This document shows positions 52,918-61,336 of a stretch of DNA of 64,000 nt, in pieces. Positions within the stretch are counted from its first letter, which is position 1, and each line of letters opens with the position of its first letter. The DNA lies in NCBI GenBank assembly GCA_036946295.1, contig JAQIJK010000002.1, forward strand, positions 122,350 to 186,349. The letters are read 5' to 3'. The notes beneath the pieces are model-generated. The model saw nothing but the letters and a program-made list of their open reading frames with translations, did no database searches and had not been told where the DNA came from. The stretch is from Methylobacterium frigidaeris (GTDB lineage: Bacteria > Pseudomonadota > Alphaproteobacteria > Rhizobiales > Beijerinckiaceae). A program made the translations under genes and the position numbers.

Positions 52918-53370
52918 TTGAGACAGTTCATCATCGGCCTCGGTGCACTCGCGTTGACATGCGCCGCGCTCCCCGTTCTGGCCCAGGGCACCACGGCGCC
53001 GAACGCTGCGACCACATCGTCCACCGATACGGGGATGAAGATCGCCGACACCGCGACGGTGAAGCTCAAGTACGTGACCGTGAAGCCCGCCGACGTGATG
53101 TCTTCCAAGCTCGTTGGAACGACGGTCTACAACAACAAGAACGAGACCGTTGGTGAGGTCCAGGACCTTGTGATCGAGAACGGCAAGAGCATCACCGGTG
53201 TCGTCGTCGGCGTCGGTGGATTTCTGGGCCTCGGCGAGAGCTATGTCGTGCTCGATCCCTCCACTCTTGCCATGAGCAACAAGAATGGCAAGTGGACAGT
53301 CCATGTCGACACCGACAAGGACACGCTCAAGGGAGCGCCAAAGTTCGAGTATTCCAAGAAGAACGGCTGA
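52918..53370 (+). CDS. Secreted PRC-barrel domain protein
   Basis: Signal peptide; SSKLVGTTVYNNKNETVGEVQDLVI..VVGVGGFLGLGE. Confidence 0.88.
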   Translation: MRQFIIGLGALALTCAALPVLAQGTTAPNAATTSSTDTGMKIADTATVKLKYVTVKPADVMSSKLVGTTVYNNKNETVGEVQDLVIENGKSITGVVVGVGGFLGLGESYVVLDPSTLAMSNKNGKWTVHVDTDKDTLKGAPKFEYSKKNG

Positions 53371-53395
53371 TGCTGGTTCGGCAGGAGAGAGTAAC

Positions 53396-53659
53396 ATGAA
53401 GCACGTCATCATTGCCTCGGCGGTCGCAGCCGGCCTCGGCCTCATCGCGTCGGCTCTGCCGTCGCAGGCGCTCCCCGTATCGGCCGCTGGTGTGACCGCC
53501 GGTGCGGATACCGGCCTCGTTCAGGTGAGAATGTCCAGGCGTCAGATGCGCAGCCACAGAGTGCGGCAGAGCTCGGCGAGCCGTGGCAATGCCGCCATGC
53601 CCTCGCGCCCGCCCGCGGCGAGGCAGTACGGCCAGACCACGGGTGGTCCTCGTCGGTGA
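53396..53659 (+). CDS. Small secreted basic protein (87 aa)
   Basis: AGGAGA RBS; MKHVIIASAVAAGLGLIASALPSQA signal; Arg-rich tail. Confidence 0.7.
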   Translation: MKHVIIASAVAAGLGLIASALPSQALPVSAAGVTAGADTGLVQVRMSRRQMRSHRVRQSSASRGNAAMPSRPPAARQYGQTTGGPRR

Positions 53660-53754
53660 CTTGCGCACCCGTCATCGTGACTGACAGCAGGTTGCAGCAA
53701 TAGGACGAAGGGCCGCCGGAGGGCAGGAATGCATCCGGCGGTCCTTTTCATGAT

Positions 53755-54675
53755 TTGGATGCCTGCATGATCTTCTCGGAGGCGCTCGATCGCCTTGAGC
53801 AGCTCGGCCGTGCGAGCGCTGCGCTCCTGCCGGGTCTCGCCATCGCTCTCGTCTTGTTCGGCCTCGGCCTGCTCGTTGCCCGCCTCGTACGTTCTGGAGT
53901 TCGACGAGCTGCCGCGATGCGTAGCGCATCGTCCGGTTCCGCCGCCGTTCTCGGGCGCATTGCCGGTGGCGTGACTGTCCTCGTTTCGTTCCTGGTCGCC
54001 GCCTCGGTGGCCTTCCCGTCGGTCTCGGCCGCCGACCTGTTCAACCTGCTCGGCATCGGCGGCGTGGCCATCGGCTTCGCCTTCCGCGACGTCCTGCAGA
54101 ACCTTCTCGCGGGCATCCTCATCCTGCTGACCCGCCCCTTCGTCATCGGCGACCAGATCCGAGCAGGTTCGTACGAAGGCACGGTCGAGGATGTCTGGGT
54201 GCGTGCCACGGTGCTGCGCACCTACGACAACCAGCGTGTCCTGATCCCGAACGCCATCCTGTTTGTCGACAAAATCACCGTCATCACCGCGCACGAGAAG
54301 CGCCGCCTCTCCTTCCCTCTGACTATCGGCAACGGCGACGACATCAGGGAGGCGCGTCGGGTGATCACGGAAGCTCTGCGCGCGACCGAGGGAGTGCTCG
54401 CAGATCCACCGCCGGAGGCCCTGGTCACCGGCCTCGGAGCCGCTGGCGTCGACATGACGGCACGTCTCTGGATCGATCCGCCCCGGCGTCGCGACGCGAT
54501 GGACGCGCTCGATCAGGCCATCGCGAACGTGAAGGAGGCGCTGGCCGCTGCCGGCATCGACCTGCCGTACCCGACAACCCAGGTGCTGTTCCATGATCAG
54601 ACCGAGGACACCGACGGCGACCGCTCTCGCCAGCGCGAAGGCTGGCCCGTGGGGAGGGAAGATCGAGGGCACTGA
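53755..54675 (+). CDS. MscS family mechanosensitive channel
   Basis: LGIGGVAIGFAFRDVLQNLLAGI..RPFVIGDQI, DNQRVLIPN. Confidence 0.9.
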   Translation: MDACMIFSEALDRLEQLGRASAALLPGLAIALVLFGLGLLVARLVRSGVRRAAAMRSASSGSAAVLGRIAGGVTVLVSFLVAASVAFPSVSAADLFNLLGIGGVAIGFAFRDVLQNLLAGILILLTRPFVIGDQIRAGSYEGTVEDVWVRATVLRTYDNQRVLIPNAILFVDKITVITAHEKRRLSFPLTIGNGDDIREARRVITEALRATEGVLADPPPEALVTGLGAAGVDMTARLWIDPPRRRDAMDALDQAIANVKEALAAAGIDLPYPTTQVLFHDQTEDTDGDRSRQREGWPVGREDRGH

Positions 54676-54712
54676 TACGGTTTTCGGACGATCAGTTCCG
54701 AAAACCGTATCA
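54673..54712. repeat. Solo module A hairpin starting at MscS stop codon
   Basis: TGA(stop)TACGGTTTTCGGACGATCAGTTCCGAAAACCGTATCA. Confidence 0.85.
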
Positions 54713-54867
54713 GACCGCTGAAGGTGAGGTGTGGGCTTTGACGCTACGGCTGGAATTGGATGTTCCGGCTTCTCGAGTCCAACGATGGGATTGGTCGAGC
54801 CTCGACTCAAGAATGGCCGTTCGAACCACGAAGCATTTCGAGGATGGGACGGTGAATGCCCCGCTGT

Positions 54868-54892
54868 GGAACCATTTGTATTACTCGGAGTT
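54868..54892 (+). promoter_or_regulatory. Sigma-EcfG promoter
   Basis: Exact GGAAC-N17-GTT, 48 nt before ATG 54941. Confidence 0.7.
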
Positions 54893-54940
54893 AGGTCTTT
54901 GACTTCGGATCGTTCCCGCAAATCGAGGAGTATCGCGATC

Positions 54941-55201
54941 ATGTCACTCAGACTCATCGGAATGGCGGCAGGGTTGGTGATCGTGGCGGCAAGCTTCACC
55001 GCACCGGCTAACGCAGGCGGCAATCATCGCGCCGTGAGCTTGAACGATGCTCCGGCAAACTGGGCCGGCATGACCCGGAACAGCAGAAAAGCGCACCGCC
55101 AGCGCAAGCCGCGTGACGGGGCAGGAAGCGCGTCGTCGTCGGCGCCCAATGGTCGCGGGACCGGCATGGGGCCGACCGGCCAGCCGAGCGGGGTCAAGTA
55201 G
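54941..55201 (+). CDS. Small secreted protein (86 aa)
   Basis: GAGGAG RBS; MSLRLIGMAAGLVIVAASFTAPANA signal; EcfG-type promoter. Confidence 0.65.
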   Translation: MSLRLIGMAAGLVIVAASFTAPANAGGNHRAVSLNDAPANWAGMTRNSRKAHRQRKPRDGAGSASSSAPNGRGTGMGPTGQPSGVK

Positions 55202-55319
55202 GGCACGGCTCGCCGCCCGGCCCGGCCCCCTTCCTCCATCCCTCATCGCCGGTCGCGTGCAATCCTTCGCGCGTGGCCGGCCGCCAGCCTCCTCTCGTTC
55301 AAGGGTCGTCGCGTTGTCG

Positions 55320-55640
55320 ATGCGATATGCACTTGTCTCGAAGACCTGCCTCGGCGCTGCCGGGAGTCTCGGCCTCGTCGTCCTCGCTCTGTCGGGCGCG
55401 TCTCACGCGCAGTCGGTCGGCAGCCGGATCGACCAACCGACCCCCGCGACCCTGCCCTCGGGGACACACCAGGGCAACAATCCGGTCTCGCCGGCCGACC
55501 AGCCAACCGGTCGTGTCGCGCCCCCCAGCGCCATCAGTTCGTCCTCCGACGTGATGAGGTCGGAAGGCTCCGTGCAGGGCGAGGAAAGCAAGGGCAAAAT
55601 CAACCCGATCCAGCATCTCCCCAAGGACATGCGGCGCTGA
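55320..55640 (+). CDS. Small secreted low-complexity protein (106 aa)
   Basis: Signal ending ASHA-Q; P/S/Q-rich mature part. Confidence 0.6.
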   Translation: MRYALVSKTCLGAAGSLGLVVLALSGASHAQSVGSRIDQPTPATLPSGTHQGNNPVSPADQPTGRVAPPSAISSSSDVMRSEGSVQGEESKGKINPIQHLPKDMRR

Positions 55641-55654
55641 GCAGGCGCTGCATC

Positions 55655-55676
55655 TGATCGATCGGAAACCGTATCA
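55655..55676. repeat. Fragment of modular repeat (inverted B end)
   Basis: TGATCGATCGGAAACCGTATCA resembles the end of 23752-23842. Confidence 0.55.
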
Positions 55677-55774
55677 GTGGTCGGGTGGCGCGATCGAGAT
55701 ATGACTGTCGTTGATCTTTCAAGATGAGGTGCGGGCATGGTTTGCAGATCTGAACCGATACCCGTTGCCGTCCC

Positions 55775-57175
55775 ATGATGATCGCAGGCCGAGTGCGCGA
55801 TTGCATAGCGACGCTCGTACGTCGGTCTTTGAGGGAATTCATCGGCCTTCCGCTCATCATCGTGGTTGGGTTCGTCGGCCTTTTCGCGGTGACATACCTT
55901 CTCGACGATGCCCTCTGGAACCGGTCCGGTCCCGCGCCGATTCCCTGGCTGGCCCGTCTGCTCGGCGACGCTTCCGCGATCGCAAGCCTGCTGAGCACGG
56001 TCGCGTCCGGTATGATCACGGTGACCTCGATCACCTTCTCGCTCCTGCTGATAGCTGTACAGCAGACCGCATCGACGCTTTCGACCCACGTCTACGATCA
56101 GTTCATTCAGCGGCGCTCGAACAAGCTCAGTTTCGGCTTCTTCGTCGGCCTCTGCGTGTTCGTGCTGCTGACCCTGGGCAGCGCCGGCGCCGCCCACAGG
56201 CCCGTCTTCGGGGCACTCCTGTCGCTCCTGATGACCGGGGCCGCGCTGTGCATGGTGGTGATCCTGATCTACAGCACCGTCGATCAGATGCGGCCCCACT
56301 CGGTCATCACGGCGATCCATGGCCACACGATCAAGGCCCGCCTGGCGGAACGACACCTGATCGAGGCCACGCGCCGGGCGCCGCGTGACAGCCTGTTGTG
56401 GTCGCAGATCGTCCGTACGGACGGGTACGGCGTGGTCTGCGAGCTGGATGTGACGTCCATCGAGCGATCCGCGTCGGATCACGACGCCGAGATCGAGATC
56501 ATCGCGCGCGTCGGGACCAACGTGGCGTTCCGGGATCCCCTCTATCGCGTGCATGCCCGGCAGCCTTTGCCGGCGGACACCCTGGCCGACCTCGAGGAGG
56601 CGGTCGGGACATCCTTCAAGATCGAGCCCCGGCGGACCATCGACAGGGATGCGGGCTTCGGAATCGAGCAACTCTACTCGATCGCCTGGACCACCGCCTC
56701 GACGTCCAAGCAGAACCCGCAACCAGCGATTCTGGTCTGCCACTGCCTTCGGGATATCATCGCCCGCTGGAGTCGCGCCGACCCGTTCCCGGAACGGCCC
56801 TCGTCACGGGTCGTCTACTCGGACAGGGCTGTGGACGACGCCATCTCGGCGATCGCCTCGATCGGTGTCGCCGCATCGGAGAGTATGCAGAGCACCCTCG
56901 CTGCCGAGATCTGGCGGACCCTCGCAACGCTGATCGACGATGTGTCGGCCGAGCGTCTGCCGGCCCTGACGGACACGGTCCGCCGGCTGATATCCTCGCT
57001 CGGCGATCACGTGTTGACCTGCGATCTGGAGCAGGAACTGAACAGGTGTCGGATCGCCCTGAACAACAGGGGCGAAGGTCCGGTTGCCGACATGGTGCAG
57101 GAGGCGGCTTGCAAGTTGGCGACCAGTATCGGCGAGCTGAATGCCCGCGGGACCCGGGTTTCTGCCGCGAGCTGA
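55775..57175 (+). CDS. DUF2254 family membrane protein
   Basis: LSTVASGMITVTSITFSLLLIAVQQ, GFGIEQL, SKQNPQPA. Confidence 0.8.
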   Translation: MMIAGRVRDCIATLVRRSLREFIGLPLIIVVGFVGLFAVTYLLDDALWNRSGPAPIPWLARLLGDASAIASLLSTVASGMITVTSITFSLLLIAVQQTASTLSTHVYDQFIQRRSNKLSFGFFVGLCVFVLLTLGSAGAAHRPVFGALLSLLMTGAALCMVVILIYSTVDQMRPHSVITAIHGHTIKARLAERHLIEATRRAPRDSLLWSQIVRTDGYGVVCELDVTSIERSASDHDAEIEIIARVGTNVAFRDPLYRVHARQPLPADTLADLEEAVGTSFKIEPRRTIDRDAGFGIEQLYSIAWTTASTSKQNPQPAILVCHCLRDIIARWSRADPFPERPSSRVVYSDRAVDDAISAIASIGVAASESMQSTLAAEIWRTLATLIDDVSAERLPALTDTVRRLISSLGDHVLTCDLEQELNRCRIALNNRGEGPVADMVQEAACKLATSIGELNARGTRVSAAS

Positions 57176-57580
57176 GGTCGATCGCGGAAAGCCTGACGAA
57201 TGCTTGCTGCCTCGCGGCTCGAACGAAGGGTGGCCCCGGCTGAAAGCCACCCTTCACCGGTTCGGCTGGGATCTCCAGCCCCTCGCGCCGCCGGATCCGC
57301 CTCGACCCGATTCCCGTCGGCGCGGAAGCGATCGCACCACCGATCCGAGTCAGATCAGGCTATCCGGACAGCAACGAGGGCCGAGCTTCGCTCGATCCGC
57401 CACGAGTGGCCATGTACTCGTTCAGCTCAACCGACGCGGGCAATTGACAGTCCGTCCAAATGGGCGAAGCATGAACATGCCCGGTTCGTGCGGACGCGGC
57501 TGCTGATGCCGAGTGACTGTGCATGGCCGTGTTCCGACTGAAGCACCATCGGTCGAGGCAGGTGGTGGAGGCGTGGGGAG

Positions 57581-58909
57581 ATGCCTATGGCAGGGATCCG
57601 AGCAACGCCGCTTGGTCGATCGACGCTCGCTTTCGGCGCCGCGTCAGCGCTGTTGATCATGACGGGGCCCGTGCGACCCGACGAGACCTGCCAATCGCCC
57701 TACATGGCGAAGATCACCGGCATCGAGGATTTCGTCTACGTCTGGACGCTCGGGGTCGACGGGCTCGGCGACGGTTCCGACAAGCTCGTCACAATCGACG
57801 CACGCGAGACCTCAGCCACTTTCGGCAAGCCGATCCATGTTGCTTCGGTCGGAGGCCGGCACGAGGCGCACCACGGTGGCTTCACCGACGACCGGCGCCA
57901 GTTCTGGGCCGCCGGCCTGTCGGACAGCAGGATCTTCATCTTCGACGTGGCGACCAGGCCGGCGACGCCCCAGCTCGTCAAGGTGATCGACGACTTCGTC
58001 GAGAGGAGCGGCGGCGCGGCCGGCCCGCATGGTGCCTACGCGCTGCCCGGCCGCATGCTGATCCCAAGCCTGTCGAACCGGCACGGCACCGGTCGAGCTG
58101 CGCTCGTCGAATACTCGAACGAGGGCGACTACGTCACGACGCATTGGTTGCCCACCGATGCCGAGCCGAACGGCGCGAGGATCGAGGGCACGGCGGACGG
58201 CTACGGCTACGATGCCCGCGTGCTGCCGCGCCGCAACGTGATGCTGACCTCGTCCTTCACCGGGCTCGAGAACTACATGCGCCCCCTCGGTGACCTGATG
58301 AAGGACGGCGAGGCGATGAAACGGTTCGGGCACACGATGGTGCTGTGGGACTTCCACGCCCGCCAGCCCCGCACCGTGCTGAGCGTGCCCGGCGTGCCGC
58401 TGGAGATCCGCTGGGCCTGGGGGCCGCAGAACACCTACGCCTTCACCTCGACCGCGCTCACCGCGAAGCTCTGGCTCGTGCGCGAGGACGAACGCGGCGC
58501 CTGGAGCGCCAAGCCTGTGGCCGACATCGGCGACCCGTCCACCCTGCCGGTGCCCGTCGACATCAGCCTCTCGGCCGACGACCGCACGCTGTTCGTCGAC
58601 ACCTTCATGGACGGAACCACCCGCGTCTTCGACGTCTCCGATCCCGACACGCCGCGGCAGATCTACGAGAAGAAAATCGGCTCTCAGCTCAACATGGTCT
58701 CGCAGAGCTGGGACGGCAAACGGATCTACTACACCAGCTCGCTCCTGGCGAACTGGGACAAGACCGGAGCAGAGAACGAGCAGTTCCTCAAAGCCTACGG
58801 CTGGAACGGCAAGGAGCTGGCGCCGCGCTTCGCGATCGACTTCACGGCCGAGCGGCTCGGGCGCCCGCACATGATGGCGTTCGGCGCCACCTCGCTCTAC
58901 GCGAAGTGA
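57581..58909 (+). CDS. SBP56/methanethiol oxidase (MtoX)-like secreted beta-propeller
   Basis: DETCQSP, VWTLG..SDKLVTI, EAHHGGFTDDRR, GPH..LPGRML, GYGYD, PLEIRW, NMVSQSWDGKR, ANWD. Confidence 0.9.
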   Translation: MPMAGIRATPLGRSTLAFGAASALLIMTGPVRPDETCQSPYMAKITGIEDFVYVWTLGVDGLGDGSDKLVTIDARETSATFGKPIHVASVGGRHEAHHGGFTDDRRQFWAAGLSDSRIFIFDVATRPATPQLVKVIDDFVERSGGAAGPHGAYALPGRMLIPSLSNRHGTGRAALVEYSNEGDYVTTHWLPTDAEPNGARIEGTADGYGYDARVLPRRNVMLTSSFTGLENYMRPLGDLMKDGEAMKRFGHTMVLWDFHARQPRTVLSVPGVPLEIRWAWGPQNTYAFTSTALTAKLWLVREDERGAWSAKPVADIGDPSTLPVPVDISLSADDRTLFVDTFMDGTTRVFDVSDPDTPRQIYEKKIGSQLNMVSQSWDGKRIYYTSSLLANWDKTGAENEQFLKAYGWNGKELAPRFAIDFTAERLGRPHMMAFGATSLYAK

Positions 58910-58914
58910 CGCCG

Positions 58915-59586
58915 ATGCGACCCGCGGTACTCCTCGGCCTCGCGGCGCTGGCCTTCGGTGCCGCGGCCCTCGCTCACGACGCCCACCCGCCGCGGCCGGA
59001 AGCGGCGGCCGTCTTCCCCATCCCGCCGCCGGGGAGCTATCGCCTGCCTGCGATCAAGCCTGCGGCGAGGGGCAGCGTCCTCGACGAGGCCGGCCGTCCG
59101 CGGGACCTCCTGGGCGACGCGGGCGGCATCACGGTGCTGGCACTGATCTACACGCGCTGCGGCGACGTCTGCCCGCTTGCCAGCGCCGACATGGCTCGGC
59201 TGCAGGACCTCGCCGCGACGGACCCGGCCGTGGGGCGCCGGATGCGCCTCGTCACGCTGAGCTTCGACCCCGAGCACGACACGCCGGAGGTGATGCGCGA
59301 CTTCGCCGCCGGGTGGCGCTCCGCCGATCCCCTCGCACCTCCCTGGGCCTTCCTCACGGCGCCCGGCAGGGCTGAGATCGCGCCGATCCTGGCGGCCTAC
59401 GGGCAGCGCGTCGATGGCGGCCCAAACGGGGCACTGAATCACGTCTTCCGCGCCTTTCTGATCGATTCCGGGTGCCGCGTGCGCAACATCTACAGCCTCG
59501 ACTTCTTCGAACCCGCGCTCGTCCTCACCGACGTCCGCACGCTGCTTCTCGAGGAATCCGGCTCCGGGGAGGCGCAGGACCGCTGA
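58915..59586 (+). CDS. SCO1/SenC copper chaperone
   Basis: IYTRCGDVCP (CxxxC), SFDPEHDTPE, LNHV. Confidence 0.9.
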   Translation: MRPAVLLGLAALAFGAAALAHDAHPPRPEAAAVFPIPPPGSYRLPAIKPAARGSVLDEAGRPRDLLGDAGGITVLALIYTRCGDVCPLASADMARLQDLAATDPAVGRRMRLVTLSFDPEHDTPEVMRDFAAGWRSADPLAPPWAFLTAPGRAEIAPILAAYGQRVDGGPNGALNHVFRAFLIDSGCRVRNIYSLDFFEPALVLTDVRTLLLEESGSGEAQDR

Positions 59587-59617: not shown

Positions 59618-61336
59618 ATGGTGAAGTCCAGGGCTGATCCTCGCCGCTCGCTCTTCGCGAAGTACTTCGTCGTGGTGTTCACCGCGGTGGCGCTGCCCCT
59701 GTTCGCGAATGGGGGGCTGGAGGCGTGGTTGAGCTACCGTGACCGGCGCGACCAGCTGCACGCGCTGCTCGGCCTGGAGGCGCGAGCGGCCGCCCTCCGC
59801 ATCCAGGGCTTCATCGACACCATCCGCGAGCAGCTCGGCTGGATGGTGCAGTTGCCCTGGACACCGGCGGCAGAGGATCGCCAGCGCCTCGACGCCCTGC
59901 GCTTGCTGCGACAGGTGCCCGCCGTCGTGCAGCTCACCCTCATCGACGGGGATGGCCGCGAGCGGCTGCATGTCTCGCGCGTCAGCCTCAACCGGATTGG
60001 GAGCGGCGCCGACCGCTCGGCCGATCCGGCCGTGGCCGGAGCCCGGCCAACGCGGGTATGGTACGGGCCGGTGACCTATCACCGCGGTTCCGAACCCTTC
60101 ATGACGATGGCGGTGGCAGGCAACCGCGCTTCCGTCGGCGTGGCGGTTGCGGAGATCAACCTCAAGCTGATCCGGGACGTGATCTCGGGGATCCGGGTCG
60201 GCAACACCGGACAAGCCTTCGTGCTCGACGGACCGGGTCGGCTGATCGCCCATCCGGACATCAGCCTCGTGCTGCGCGGCGCCGATGATCCCGCGGCGCG
60301 GTCTCTCGCGACCCTGCGCGCGGCCGGGGGCACGGCGACGGGCATGGACGCCCTCGGGCGCAACGTCATCGCTGCGACGGCCGGGATCCCTGGCGTCGAC
60401 TGGACGGTGGTGGCGATGCAGCCTACCGCGGAAGCGTTCGAGTCGATCTCGCGAGCACTCCTCCGCACCGGCGCGCTCATCCTTCTCGGCATCCTCTTCG
60501 CCGCCGCGCTCGCGTACGAGCTGGCACGGCGTATGACCGGCCCGATCCGGCTGCTCGAACACGGCACGCAACGGATTGGCTCCGGAGATTTCGGGCACCG
60601 CATCGAGATTGCCTCGGCGGACGAACTCGGCCGGCTCGCCGCACGGTTCAATGCGATGGCGACTGAACTCGCGCTGTCGCAGGAACGGCAGGAGCGCATC
60701 GGGCGCCTGAGGCGCTTTCTTGCCCCGCAGGTCGCCGAACTCGTCGATCGCTGCGACGATGACGGTGTCCTCGATGGACGACGTGTCGAGGTTGCGGTCG
60801 TCTTCGGCGACTTGCGCGGCTTCACCGCCTTCTCGGCCGGTTCGCCACCCGAGGTGGTGATCGAGGTTCTCGGCGAATACTTCGCGGCTTTGGGCGACGT
60901 GATCACGTCTCACGGCGCCACCCTGGTCACCTTCACCGGCGACGGCCTGATGGCTCTGGTGAACGCTCCCGTTCCCGCACCGGATCCCGGCTTCGCCGCC
61001 GTGCGACTCGCCGTGGCCATGCAGGAGGCGGTCCGGCCGCTCGCCGTGGGGTGGGACGTCAAGAGTTATGGCATCGGGTTCGGCGTCGGCGCCGCGATGG
61101 GACCTGCGACCGTCGGGCGGATCGGCTACGAGGGCCGCTCCGACTACACGGCGATCGGACCGGTGGTGAACCTCGCCGCCCGCCTCTGCGCTGCCGCCGC
61201 GGACGCGCAGATCCTGATCGACACGGCTCTGGCCGAAGCCGTGCGCGGGCGCCGTGCCGTCACGCCCCTCGGCACGCTGTCGCTGAAGGGGTTGTCGGGG
61301 AGTGTGCCGGTCTTCGCTGTCGCGTATGGGTTGTGA
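59618..61336 (+). CDS. Class III nucleotidyl cyclase with Cache and HAMP domains
   Basis: TM-Cache-TM-HAMP (DELGRLA); FGDLRGFT, FTGDGLM, YTAIGPVVNLAARL. Confidence 0.9.
   Translation: MVKSRADPRRSLFAKYFVVVFTAVALPLFANGGLEAWLSYRDRRDQLHALLGLEARAAALRIQGFIDTIREQLGWMVQLPWTPAAEDRQRLDALRLLRQVPAVVQLTLIDGDGRERLHVSRVSLNRIGSGADRSADPAVAGARPTRVWYGPVTYHRGSEPFMTMAVAGNRASVGVAVAEINLKLIRDVISGIRVGNTGQAFVLDGPGRLIAHPDISLVLRGADDPAARSLATLRAAGGTATGMDALGRNVIAATAGIPGVDWTVVAMQPTAEAFESISRALLRTGALILLGILFAAALAYELARRMTGPIRLLEHGTQRIGSGDFGHRIEIASADELGRLAARFNAMATELALSQERQERIGRLRRFLAPQVAELVDRCDDDGVLDGRRVEVAVVFGDLRGFTAFSAGSPPEVVIEVLGEYFAALGDVITSHGATLVTFTGDGLMALVNAPVPAPDPGFAAVRLAVAMQEAVRPLAVGWDVKSYGIGFGVGAAMGPATVGRIGYEGRSDYTAIGPVVNLAARLCAAAADAQILIDTALAEAVRGRRAVTPLGTLSLKGLSGSVPVFAVAYGL

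Follow-up and report, generated by a model that had tools for sequence, protein, structure and literature searches.

In this study, we analysed the mtoX locus of Methylobacterium frigidaeris, which lies in a window of 64,000 nucleotides (the whole stretch of DNA examined) on the 350 kb second contig of the 5.75 Mb genome (71-72% G+C). The gene mtoX encodes the precursor of a periplasmic methanethiol oxidase (MtoX) of the SBP56 family, and a gene for a SCO1/SenC copper chaperone begins 5 nucleotides past its stop codon. Bacterial MtoX has been proposed to carry a tryptophan tryptophylquinone (TTQ) cofactor formed from two tryptophans; we show that one of the two is a leucine at this locus, that the genome carries no mauG ortholog, and that, among mtoX loci, the enzymes in which this tryptophan never varies are precisely those accompanied by a MauG-like gene. 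The features concerned are listed in Table 1, with residues numbered on the precursor.

Table 1. Features of the mtoX locus of M. frigidaeris and related genes elsewhere in its genome (positions are those of the window; C1, main contig)
Feature	Position	Strand	Basis or remark
MscS-type channel gene	53755-54675	+	upstream of mtoX
DUF2254 membrane protein gene	55775-57175	+	upstream of mtoX
mtoX, precursor of SBP56-family periplasmic methanethiol oxidase, 442 aa	57581..58909	+	NF052453, Pfam SBP56, AlphaFold fold
Signal peptide, residues 1-33	57581..57679	+	hydrophobic leader; predicted mature start D34-E-T-C
Cys37, sole cysteine, in invariant DETC near mature N-terminus	57689..57691	+	family-invariant
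His97-His98 (EAHH), putative copper ligands	57869..57874	+	His89/His90 of Hyphomicrobium methanethiol oxidase (MTO)
His150 (GPH), putative copper ligand	58028..58030	+	His140 of Hyphomicrobium MTO
Leu229 (CTC), position of proposed TTQ Trp211	58265..58267	+	ungapped alignment, inside SSFTG-L-ENY
Loop 229-240, four signature positions	58265..58300	+	L229, R234, P235 and M240 here; W, M, D and L in MauG-linked enzymes
Trp392 (ANWD), second proposed TTQ Trp	58754..58756	+	Trp374 of strain VS; invariant in all sampled subfamilies
His430 (RPH), putative copper ligand	58868..58870	+	His412 of Hyphomicrobium MTO
SCO1/SenC copper chaperone, 223 aa	58915..59586	+	Pfam PF02630, 45.8 bits
C82xxxC86 of SCO1/SenC	59158-59172	+	
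H176 of SCO1/SenC	59440-59442	+	
dCache_1-HAMP-class III nucleotide cyclase (Guanylate_cyc)	59618..61336	+	Pfam; starts 31 nt past SCO1 stop
CCP_MauG-family gene	C1:1487363-1488436	-	between chemoreceptor and ABC binding-protein genes
SCO1/SenC paralog	C1:4913758-4914402	+	mtoX-linked SCO1 profile
SCO1/SenC paralog	C1:5175652-5176323	-	mtoX-linked SCO1 profile

The mtoX open reading frame (ORF) matched the NCBIfam equivalog model NF052453 (MthilOxMtoX) with 706.6 bits over positions 3-407 of 408, the curated cut-off being 650, and its product scored 142 bits against Pfam SBP56 (PF05694). It is the sole gene of its kind in the genome, and the nearest database homologs of the protein are Methylobacterium throughout. 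The PDB holds no MtoX structure; a sequence search for solved structures returned the Sulfolobus SBP56 structure 2ECE as the only relative. The AlphaFold model (predicted template modelling score, pTM, 0.82; predicted local distance difference test, pLDDT, about 90 in the core) also has 2ECE as its top PDB fold match (TM 0.74, E 3e-25), at a sequence identity of only about 22%. Model pLDDT was below 50 over residues 1-46, and the predicted mature start agrees with the sequenced N-terminus of Hyphomicrobium MTO, DETXNSPF.

The adjacent SCO1/SenC protein scored 234 bits on a hidden Markov model (HMM) of mtoX-linked SCO1s. The two paralogs on the main contig, presumably housekeeping chaperones of cytochrome oxidase, reached 81 and 74 bits. 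At almost every locus surveyed, SCO1 is the gene immediately following mtoX. An earlier account of the stretch made without database searches (the sequence-only reading) had described an exported MtoX-like SBP56 protein followed by an intact SCO1/SenC and then by a cyclase, with no mauG; the HMM scores and the window annotation agree with that description.

The flanks of Leu229 give a gap-free alignment with the TGW-NNY motif, which holds the W211 site of Eyice et al., and in the model Leu229 is part of the loop that connects strand 220-224 to helix 236-241. No other tryptophan occurs within 25 residues of position 229, the nearest being W189 and W256; with the flanks invariant, an alignment shift that would put another tryptophan at this position was excluded. 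The sequence-only reading had placed SSFTGL at the proposed TTQ position and had listed ANWD, EAHH, GPH and RPH as retained, and both points were borne out. His97, His98, His150 and His430 were invariant across the alignments made, and His150 aligns with the first histidine of the LHTVHC motif in 2ECE. The only cysteine, Cys37, would be the counterpart of Cys28 in the Ruegeria pomeroyi enzyme RpMTO; Cys28 is reported to be needed in RpMTO (Cao et al. 2024, PMC10936201). Because the tryptophan is replaced by Leu229, the proposed tryptophan-quinone cofactor cannot form in the MtoX of the window.

The leucine is common to many species and metagenome proteins, so a strain-private substitution or a sequencing error was excluded. 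Among the 120 best homologs (at least 69% identical) together with the query, residue 229 was leucine in 51, isoleucine in 37, tryptophan in 12, arginine in 11, lysine in 4 and phenylalanine in 2, with valine, histidine, glutamine and alanine once each. The SSFTG and NYMRP flanks, ANWD, EAHH, GPH and RPH were almost invariant in the same homologs. Within Methylobacterium itself the position switches between leucine and arginine.

The published basis of the cofactor needs stating with care. Eyice et al. 2018 described W211 (TGW-NNY) and W374 (ANWD) as "potentially involved" in TTQ formation (Supplementary Figure S12, PMC5739008). The proposal rested on mauG lying beside mtoX and on 2ECE, an apo structure, and the tryptophan was called strictly conserved on an alignment of four sequences (PMC5739008). 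The cofactor was still "supposed" in Cao et al. 2024 (PMC10936201). In the literature searched, these two papers alone bring methanethiol oxidase and tryptophylquinone together. TTQ in MtoX is therefore a proposal, never demonstrated for any MtoX; the sequence-only reading had the W211/W374 numbering right and was mistaken in calling TTQ established. Recombinant human SELENBP1, Caenorhabditis elegans SEMO-1 and Roseobacter denitrificans RdMTO, all produced in E. coli, are copper-dependent methanethiol oxidases, and the papers on these enzymes make no mention of TTQ (PMC10362175, PMC13603461). Table S7 of Eyice et al. 2018 lists six Methylobacterium genomes with mtoX and SCO1 and no MauG, namely Methylobacterium nodulans, sp. 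4-46, WSM2598, 174MFSha1.1, M. tarhaniae and M. variabile, with an adenylate cyclase neighbour in three of the six (PMC5739008). The mauG-less gene order in this genus has thus been on record since 2018, as gene presence only. The coupled tryptophan loss and the eight-position signature reported below are described neither in Eyice et al. 2018 nor in the other literature searched.

No CCP_MauG gene was found in the window. The genome has one gene of this family, on the main contig (Table 1), which scored 185 + 68 bits on the profile of mtoX-linked MauG, where true orthologs score 569-608 bits, and whose protein aligns over its full length to canonical cytochrome c peroxidases (CCPs). A mauG elsewhere in the genome was thereby excluded, and the absence noted by the sequence-only reading holds for the genome as a whole. 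The CCP family is altogether missing from the genome of M. tarhaniae, whose MtoX is of the same type. In other lineages, the "MauG" linked to mtoX (e.g. L036:10020-11255) scored 140-151 bits against bacterial peroxidases and the BthA-type structure 6E1C, and 81 bits against true MauG; of these matches, only 6E1C aligns across both domains. The label "MauG" for the linked di-haem gene rests on superfamily membership, and its tryptophan-modifying role is putative.

Residue 229 was then compared with gene content over MtoX loci taken, with 8 kb on either side, from one-genome-per-species contigs in three sets of 80; the scans also reported more than 600 further loci beyond these sets. Six-frame ORFs were scored against purpose-built HMMs for MtoX, SCO1 and the CCP/MauG family. 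After removal of duplicates and of loci with less than 3.5 kb downstream, 162 loci were judged. A linked MauG-like gene was present at 88 loci, and residue 229 was tryptophan in all of them (88/88). At 13 loci neither SCO1 nor MauG was adjacent (SCO1-MauG presumably lying elsewhere), and here too tryptophan was found in 13/13. The remaining 61 loci had SCO1 only: 28 enzymes had tryptophan and 33 had L, R, F, K, M or Q. Among the 162 loci, a linked MauG never occurred together with a non-Trp enzyme.

The search pattern of the second scan (GWSNYMM) included the tryptophan, and the counts were repeated on the other two scans. These unbiased scans gave 29 loci with Trp and MauG, 32 with Trp and no MauG, 32 plus the window with neither, and none with a non-Trp residue and MauG. 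All five of the tested genomes with neither gene adjacent carry a MauG-like ortholog (569-608 bits) on another contig, of the size of a SCO1-MauG fusion; the prediction that a full signature with no linked mauG goes with mauG in trans held in 5/5 methanotroph genomes and failed for the four Acidobacteriota genomes described below. Five Trp-retaining, SCO1-only alphaproteobacterial genomes were found to be without a MauG ortholog, the best match scoring 150 bits. Independent Pfam annotation of one Ile-state and one Phe-state contig returned SBP56 and SCO1-SenC and no CCP_MauG.

The distribution of changes was examined on an IQ-TREE tree of 114 unbiased rows computed with column 229 left out, changes being counted by parsimony. 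Residue 229 changed 15 times, on every occasion along a branch reconstructed without linked mauG, and in nine of these 15 changes tryptophan was replaced (by L 3, R 2, M 2, H 1 and K 1 times). Total branch length was 10.6 without linked mauG and 7.4 with it, and the probability that all 15 changes fall on the former is about 3.5e-4. The result was the same with 160 rows and a FastTree tree (P about 4e-5). The branch test is conservative, in that methanotroph loci with MauG in trans were scored as mauG-less. Since the tryptophan changes fall inside clades already without mauG, mauG was lost first and the tryptophan was then replaced repeatedly, at least nine separate times. Loss of mauG is older and wider than loss of the tryptophan, which 28/61 SCO1-only enzymes keep.

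Position 229 does not vary alone. Eight positions, namely P76, H169, G170, W229, M234, D235, L240 and K395, the last adjoining W392, had an invariance of 95% or more among the 88 MauG-linked enzymes, whereas no more than 46% of the 61 SCO1-only enzymes retained the residue. At these positions the MtoX of the window reads E, G, T, L, R, P, M and T (0/8), and its Methylobacterium relatives also score 0/8. Over all 409 columns of the alignment, 2839 changes fell on MauG-less and 1834 on MauG-linked branches, tracking branch length, and column 229 belongs to a small set of strongly skewed columns. Because the eight positions have been freed to change after mauG loss, the signature would identify a site that has a role only alongside MauG, and the core of the enzyme appears to be independent of that site.

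The ratio of nonsynonymous to synonymous substitution rates (dN/dS) between the mtoX of the window and eight relatives was 0.15-0.29. Across 12 or more Methylobacterium species, protein identity is 85-93% and every ligand motif is unchanged, and a dedicated SCO1 is kept in essentially every locus. The gene mtoX is an accessory one, with MtoX above the cut-off in 15/121 sampled Methylobacterium genomes, and on NF052453 only one of the 16 full-length matches in the genus scores lower than the 706.6 bits of the window protein. The mtoX of the window is intact, under selection and part of a distinct subfamily, not a product of decay. The sequence-only reading had reached the same view by arguing from a joint loss of the tryptophan and of MauG; the subfamily stands, on dN/dS and the survey, and the joint loss does not, given the order of events found above. 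As a separate observation, one Methylobacterium genome has two mtoX copies with identical scores on the same strand, about 52 kb apart (C1:1252828-1254054 and C1:1304971-1306197 of that genome), which suggests a recent segmental duplication.

Taken together, we consider it likely that the locus is a functional two-gene operon for a periplasmic, copper-dependent thiol oxidase of the MtoX type that works with neither MauG nor a tryptophan-derived quinone. The precursor would be exported and cleaved before Asp34, by homology to the sequenced Hyphomicrobium N-terminus, and the mature protein is predicted from the model and its fold match to adopt the SBP56 beta-propeller. Copper would be delivered by the co-encoded SCO1/SenC, with its CxxxC and histidine, to a putative site formed by His97, His98, His150 and His430, to which Asp211 and Glu275 probably add, as judged by alignment to Asp189 and Glu252 of SELENBP1 through 2ECE. 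Family membership suggests that methanethiol or close short-chain thiols would be oxidised with O2 to the aldehyde, sulfide or sulfane sulfur, and H2O2. The enzyme would belong to a large, mainly alphaproteobacterial SCO1-only branch in which the eight positions were freed after loss of the MauG-like di-haem gene. As SELENBP1, SEMO-1 and RdMTO made in E. coli show, MauG is dispensable for activity in the superfamily.

Several points weigh against the interpretation of a MauG-free enzyme whose signature was released by mauG loss. Four metagenome-assembled genomes (MAGs) of Acidobacteriota/Thermoanaerobaculia have SCO1-only mtoX with 8/8 signature residues, and a search of the four whole assemblies found no gene of the CCP/MauG family; the four are about 90% identical to each other and may be incomplete. 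Given these genomes, something other than MauG may be holding the signature constant. The SBP56 enzymes shown to be active without MauG all retain the tryptophan, no published assay of a SCO1-only, Trp-less MtoX was found in the literature searched, and none of the Methylobacterium strains that Eyice et al. tested had mtoX (PMC5739008). How far residue 229 lies from the copper site was taken from Figure S11 of Eyice et al. (PMC5739008), not from the model of the window protein. Finally, a paired-comparison test had no means of reaching significance, the tryptophan changes lying inside clades already without mauG.

The most serious alternative is that the SCO1-only, Trp-less branch has shifted in function, its members being periplasmic copper proteins with a different substrate (another thiol, sulfide or a selenium compound) or product. 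A remodelled 229-240 loop together with positions 169/170 and 395 would then reshape the pocket, and it is in keeping with this that the eight positions change together, four of them in one loop, that the MtoX equivalog score lies just 57 bits over the cut-off and near the bottom of the genus, and that differing nucleotide-cyclase genes occur near mtoX in three lineages. A determinant of specificity should, however, be conserved within a clade, whereas residue 229 varies widely and flips between leucine and arginine in Methylobacterium, and none of the proposed metal ligands has changed, nor have Cys37 and the dedicated SCO1; we regard a shift of function as unlikely. The sequence-only reading had offered, beside a TTQ-independent, copper-only thiol oxidase, an enzyme with a different quinone or substrate. 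Because the residue flips between L and R in one genus and takes ten forms among proteins at least 69% identical, its variability appears to fit relaxed constraint better than a new quinone, catalytic or specificity role.

It is far less probable that a protein-derived cofactor is still made, from Trp392 and some other partner, and matured in trans by a chromosomal di-haem peroxidase. Trp392 is indeed invariant and the genome does have its one CCP_MauG-family gene, but that gene falls well short of the orthologs in score (185 against 569-608 bits) and matches canonical peroxidases over its full length, M. tarhaniae has the same MtoX type and lacks any CCP-family gene, and no alternative tryptophan lies near position 229. 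Least credible of all is that mtoX is a decaying or inactive remnant that has lost its cofactor residue, since the absence of both the residue and the accessory gene proposed as essential, the location on a 350 kb secondary replicon and the patchy occurrence in the genus are set against an open, full-length frame, the low dN/dS, high identity with invariant ligand motifs across species, and the retained SCO1.

Returning to the MauG-free copper enzyme that we favour, comparison with known systems places it as follows. With the mtoX-SCO1/senC-mauG operon encoding MtoX of Hyphomicrobium sp. VS and RpMTO (SPOA0269) of R. pomeroyi it shares the NF052453 family, the downstream SCO1/SenC, a signal peptide, the mature DETC start, the equivalents of His89/90/140/412, the second tryptophan and the single N-terminal cysteine; it differs in having no mauG-like gene in the genome, leucine for Trp211, seven further signature residues changed and a sensor cyclase gene after SCO1. 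With the Methylobacterium loci of Table S7 it shares genus, gene order and proteins 85-93% identical. SELENBP1, SEMO-1 and RdMTO have the SBP56 fold and, without MauG, are copper-dependent oxidases of methanethiol or alkyl thiols (PMC10362175, PMC13603461). The Asp and Glu proposed as copper ligands in the SELENBP1 type are apparently kept as D211 and E275, on the alignment through 2ECE; these enzymes differ from the MtoX of the window in being cytoplasmic, in having no signal peptide or SCO1 partner and in keeping the tryptophan, and the second histidine of the human H137/H140 pair is Tyr153 here. Set beside methylamine dehydrogenase and MauG, the true TTQ system, the MtoX of the window lacks both the two-Trp pair and MauG.

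In other MtoX lineages, a di-haem gene of the CCP/MauG superfamily is linked to an enzyme with an invariant tryptophan, as in modification of the MauG type. MbnH acts on a tryptophan of a copper protein. It is conceivable, and we put it forward tentatively, that the signature marks the real target of the MauG-like enzyme, which would introduce a tryptophan-derived modification or cross-link as an optional addition to the copper site, and that enzymes of the Methylobacterium type are natural methanethiol oxidisers without this cofactor. If so, a comparison of the two kinds of enzyme would decide if MtoX carries any protein-derived cofactor, and what it adds.

Methanethiol oxidation is a key step of the volatile sulfur cycle, the human homolog is a disease gene, and the cofactor chemistry is unsettled. 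Copper plus a MauG-made TTQ is the sole cofactor proposal for the bacterial enzyme, and it came from gene neighbourhood and an alignment of four sequences; the claim of strict tryptophan conservation is wrong for a large, selected branch of MtoX. The two types of MtoX form a natural experiment, in which one cannot make the proposed cofactor and the other comes with a short list of residues to examine. On sequence grounds, environmental counts of mtoX as a methanethiol sink would pool two biochemically different subfamilies.

The cyclase gene beside SCO1 is kept, at 80-85% amino acid identity, only in the eight closest Methylobacterium species. It is a clade-specific neighbour and no part of the enzyme itself, so the idea in the sequence-only reading that it takes the place of mauG was not upheld. 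Cyclase genes were also seen near other mtoX loci (L024:5302-6939, minus strand, and L231:4110-5550). A homolog with 61% identity lies upstream and on the opposite strand in Microvirga Mcv34, and in Constrictibacter a globin gene and a cyclase gene lie just upstream of mtoX. Recurring cyclase genes near SCO1-only mtoX may tie cyclic AMP signalling to the sensing of thiols or sulfide.

A scan of the locus for promoters and terminators found nothing, and no RNA run was found to contain the locus. The genes upstream of mtoX in the window (DUF2254 and MscS-type; Table 1) were found beside mtoX in 0/34 related loci, and synteny begins at mtoX. G+C drops to 0.63-0.66 over positions 53000-58000 of the window, the replicon having 0.71.

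A search of representatives at 50% clustering returned mostly fragments and divergent paralogs without the histidine ligands and was left unused for the survey. Divergent exported MtoX-like proteins (P0123, P0124, P0126, P0132, P0134, P0145 and P0152) are 40-52% identical to the MtoX of the window. They keep an ADET or ADEP mature N-terminus, the histidines of EAHH, GPH or RPH are replaced and the tryptophan is absent; these proteins may be non-copper paralogs. Two of the divergent proteins, of 625-663 residues, are apparent fusions.

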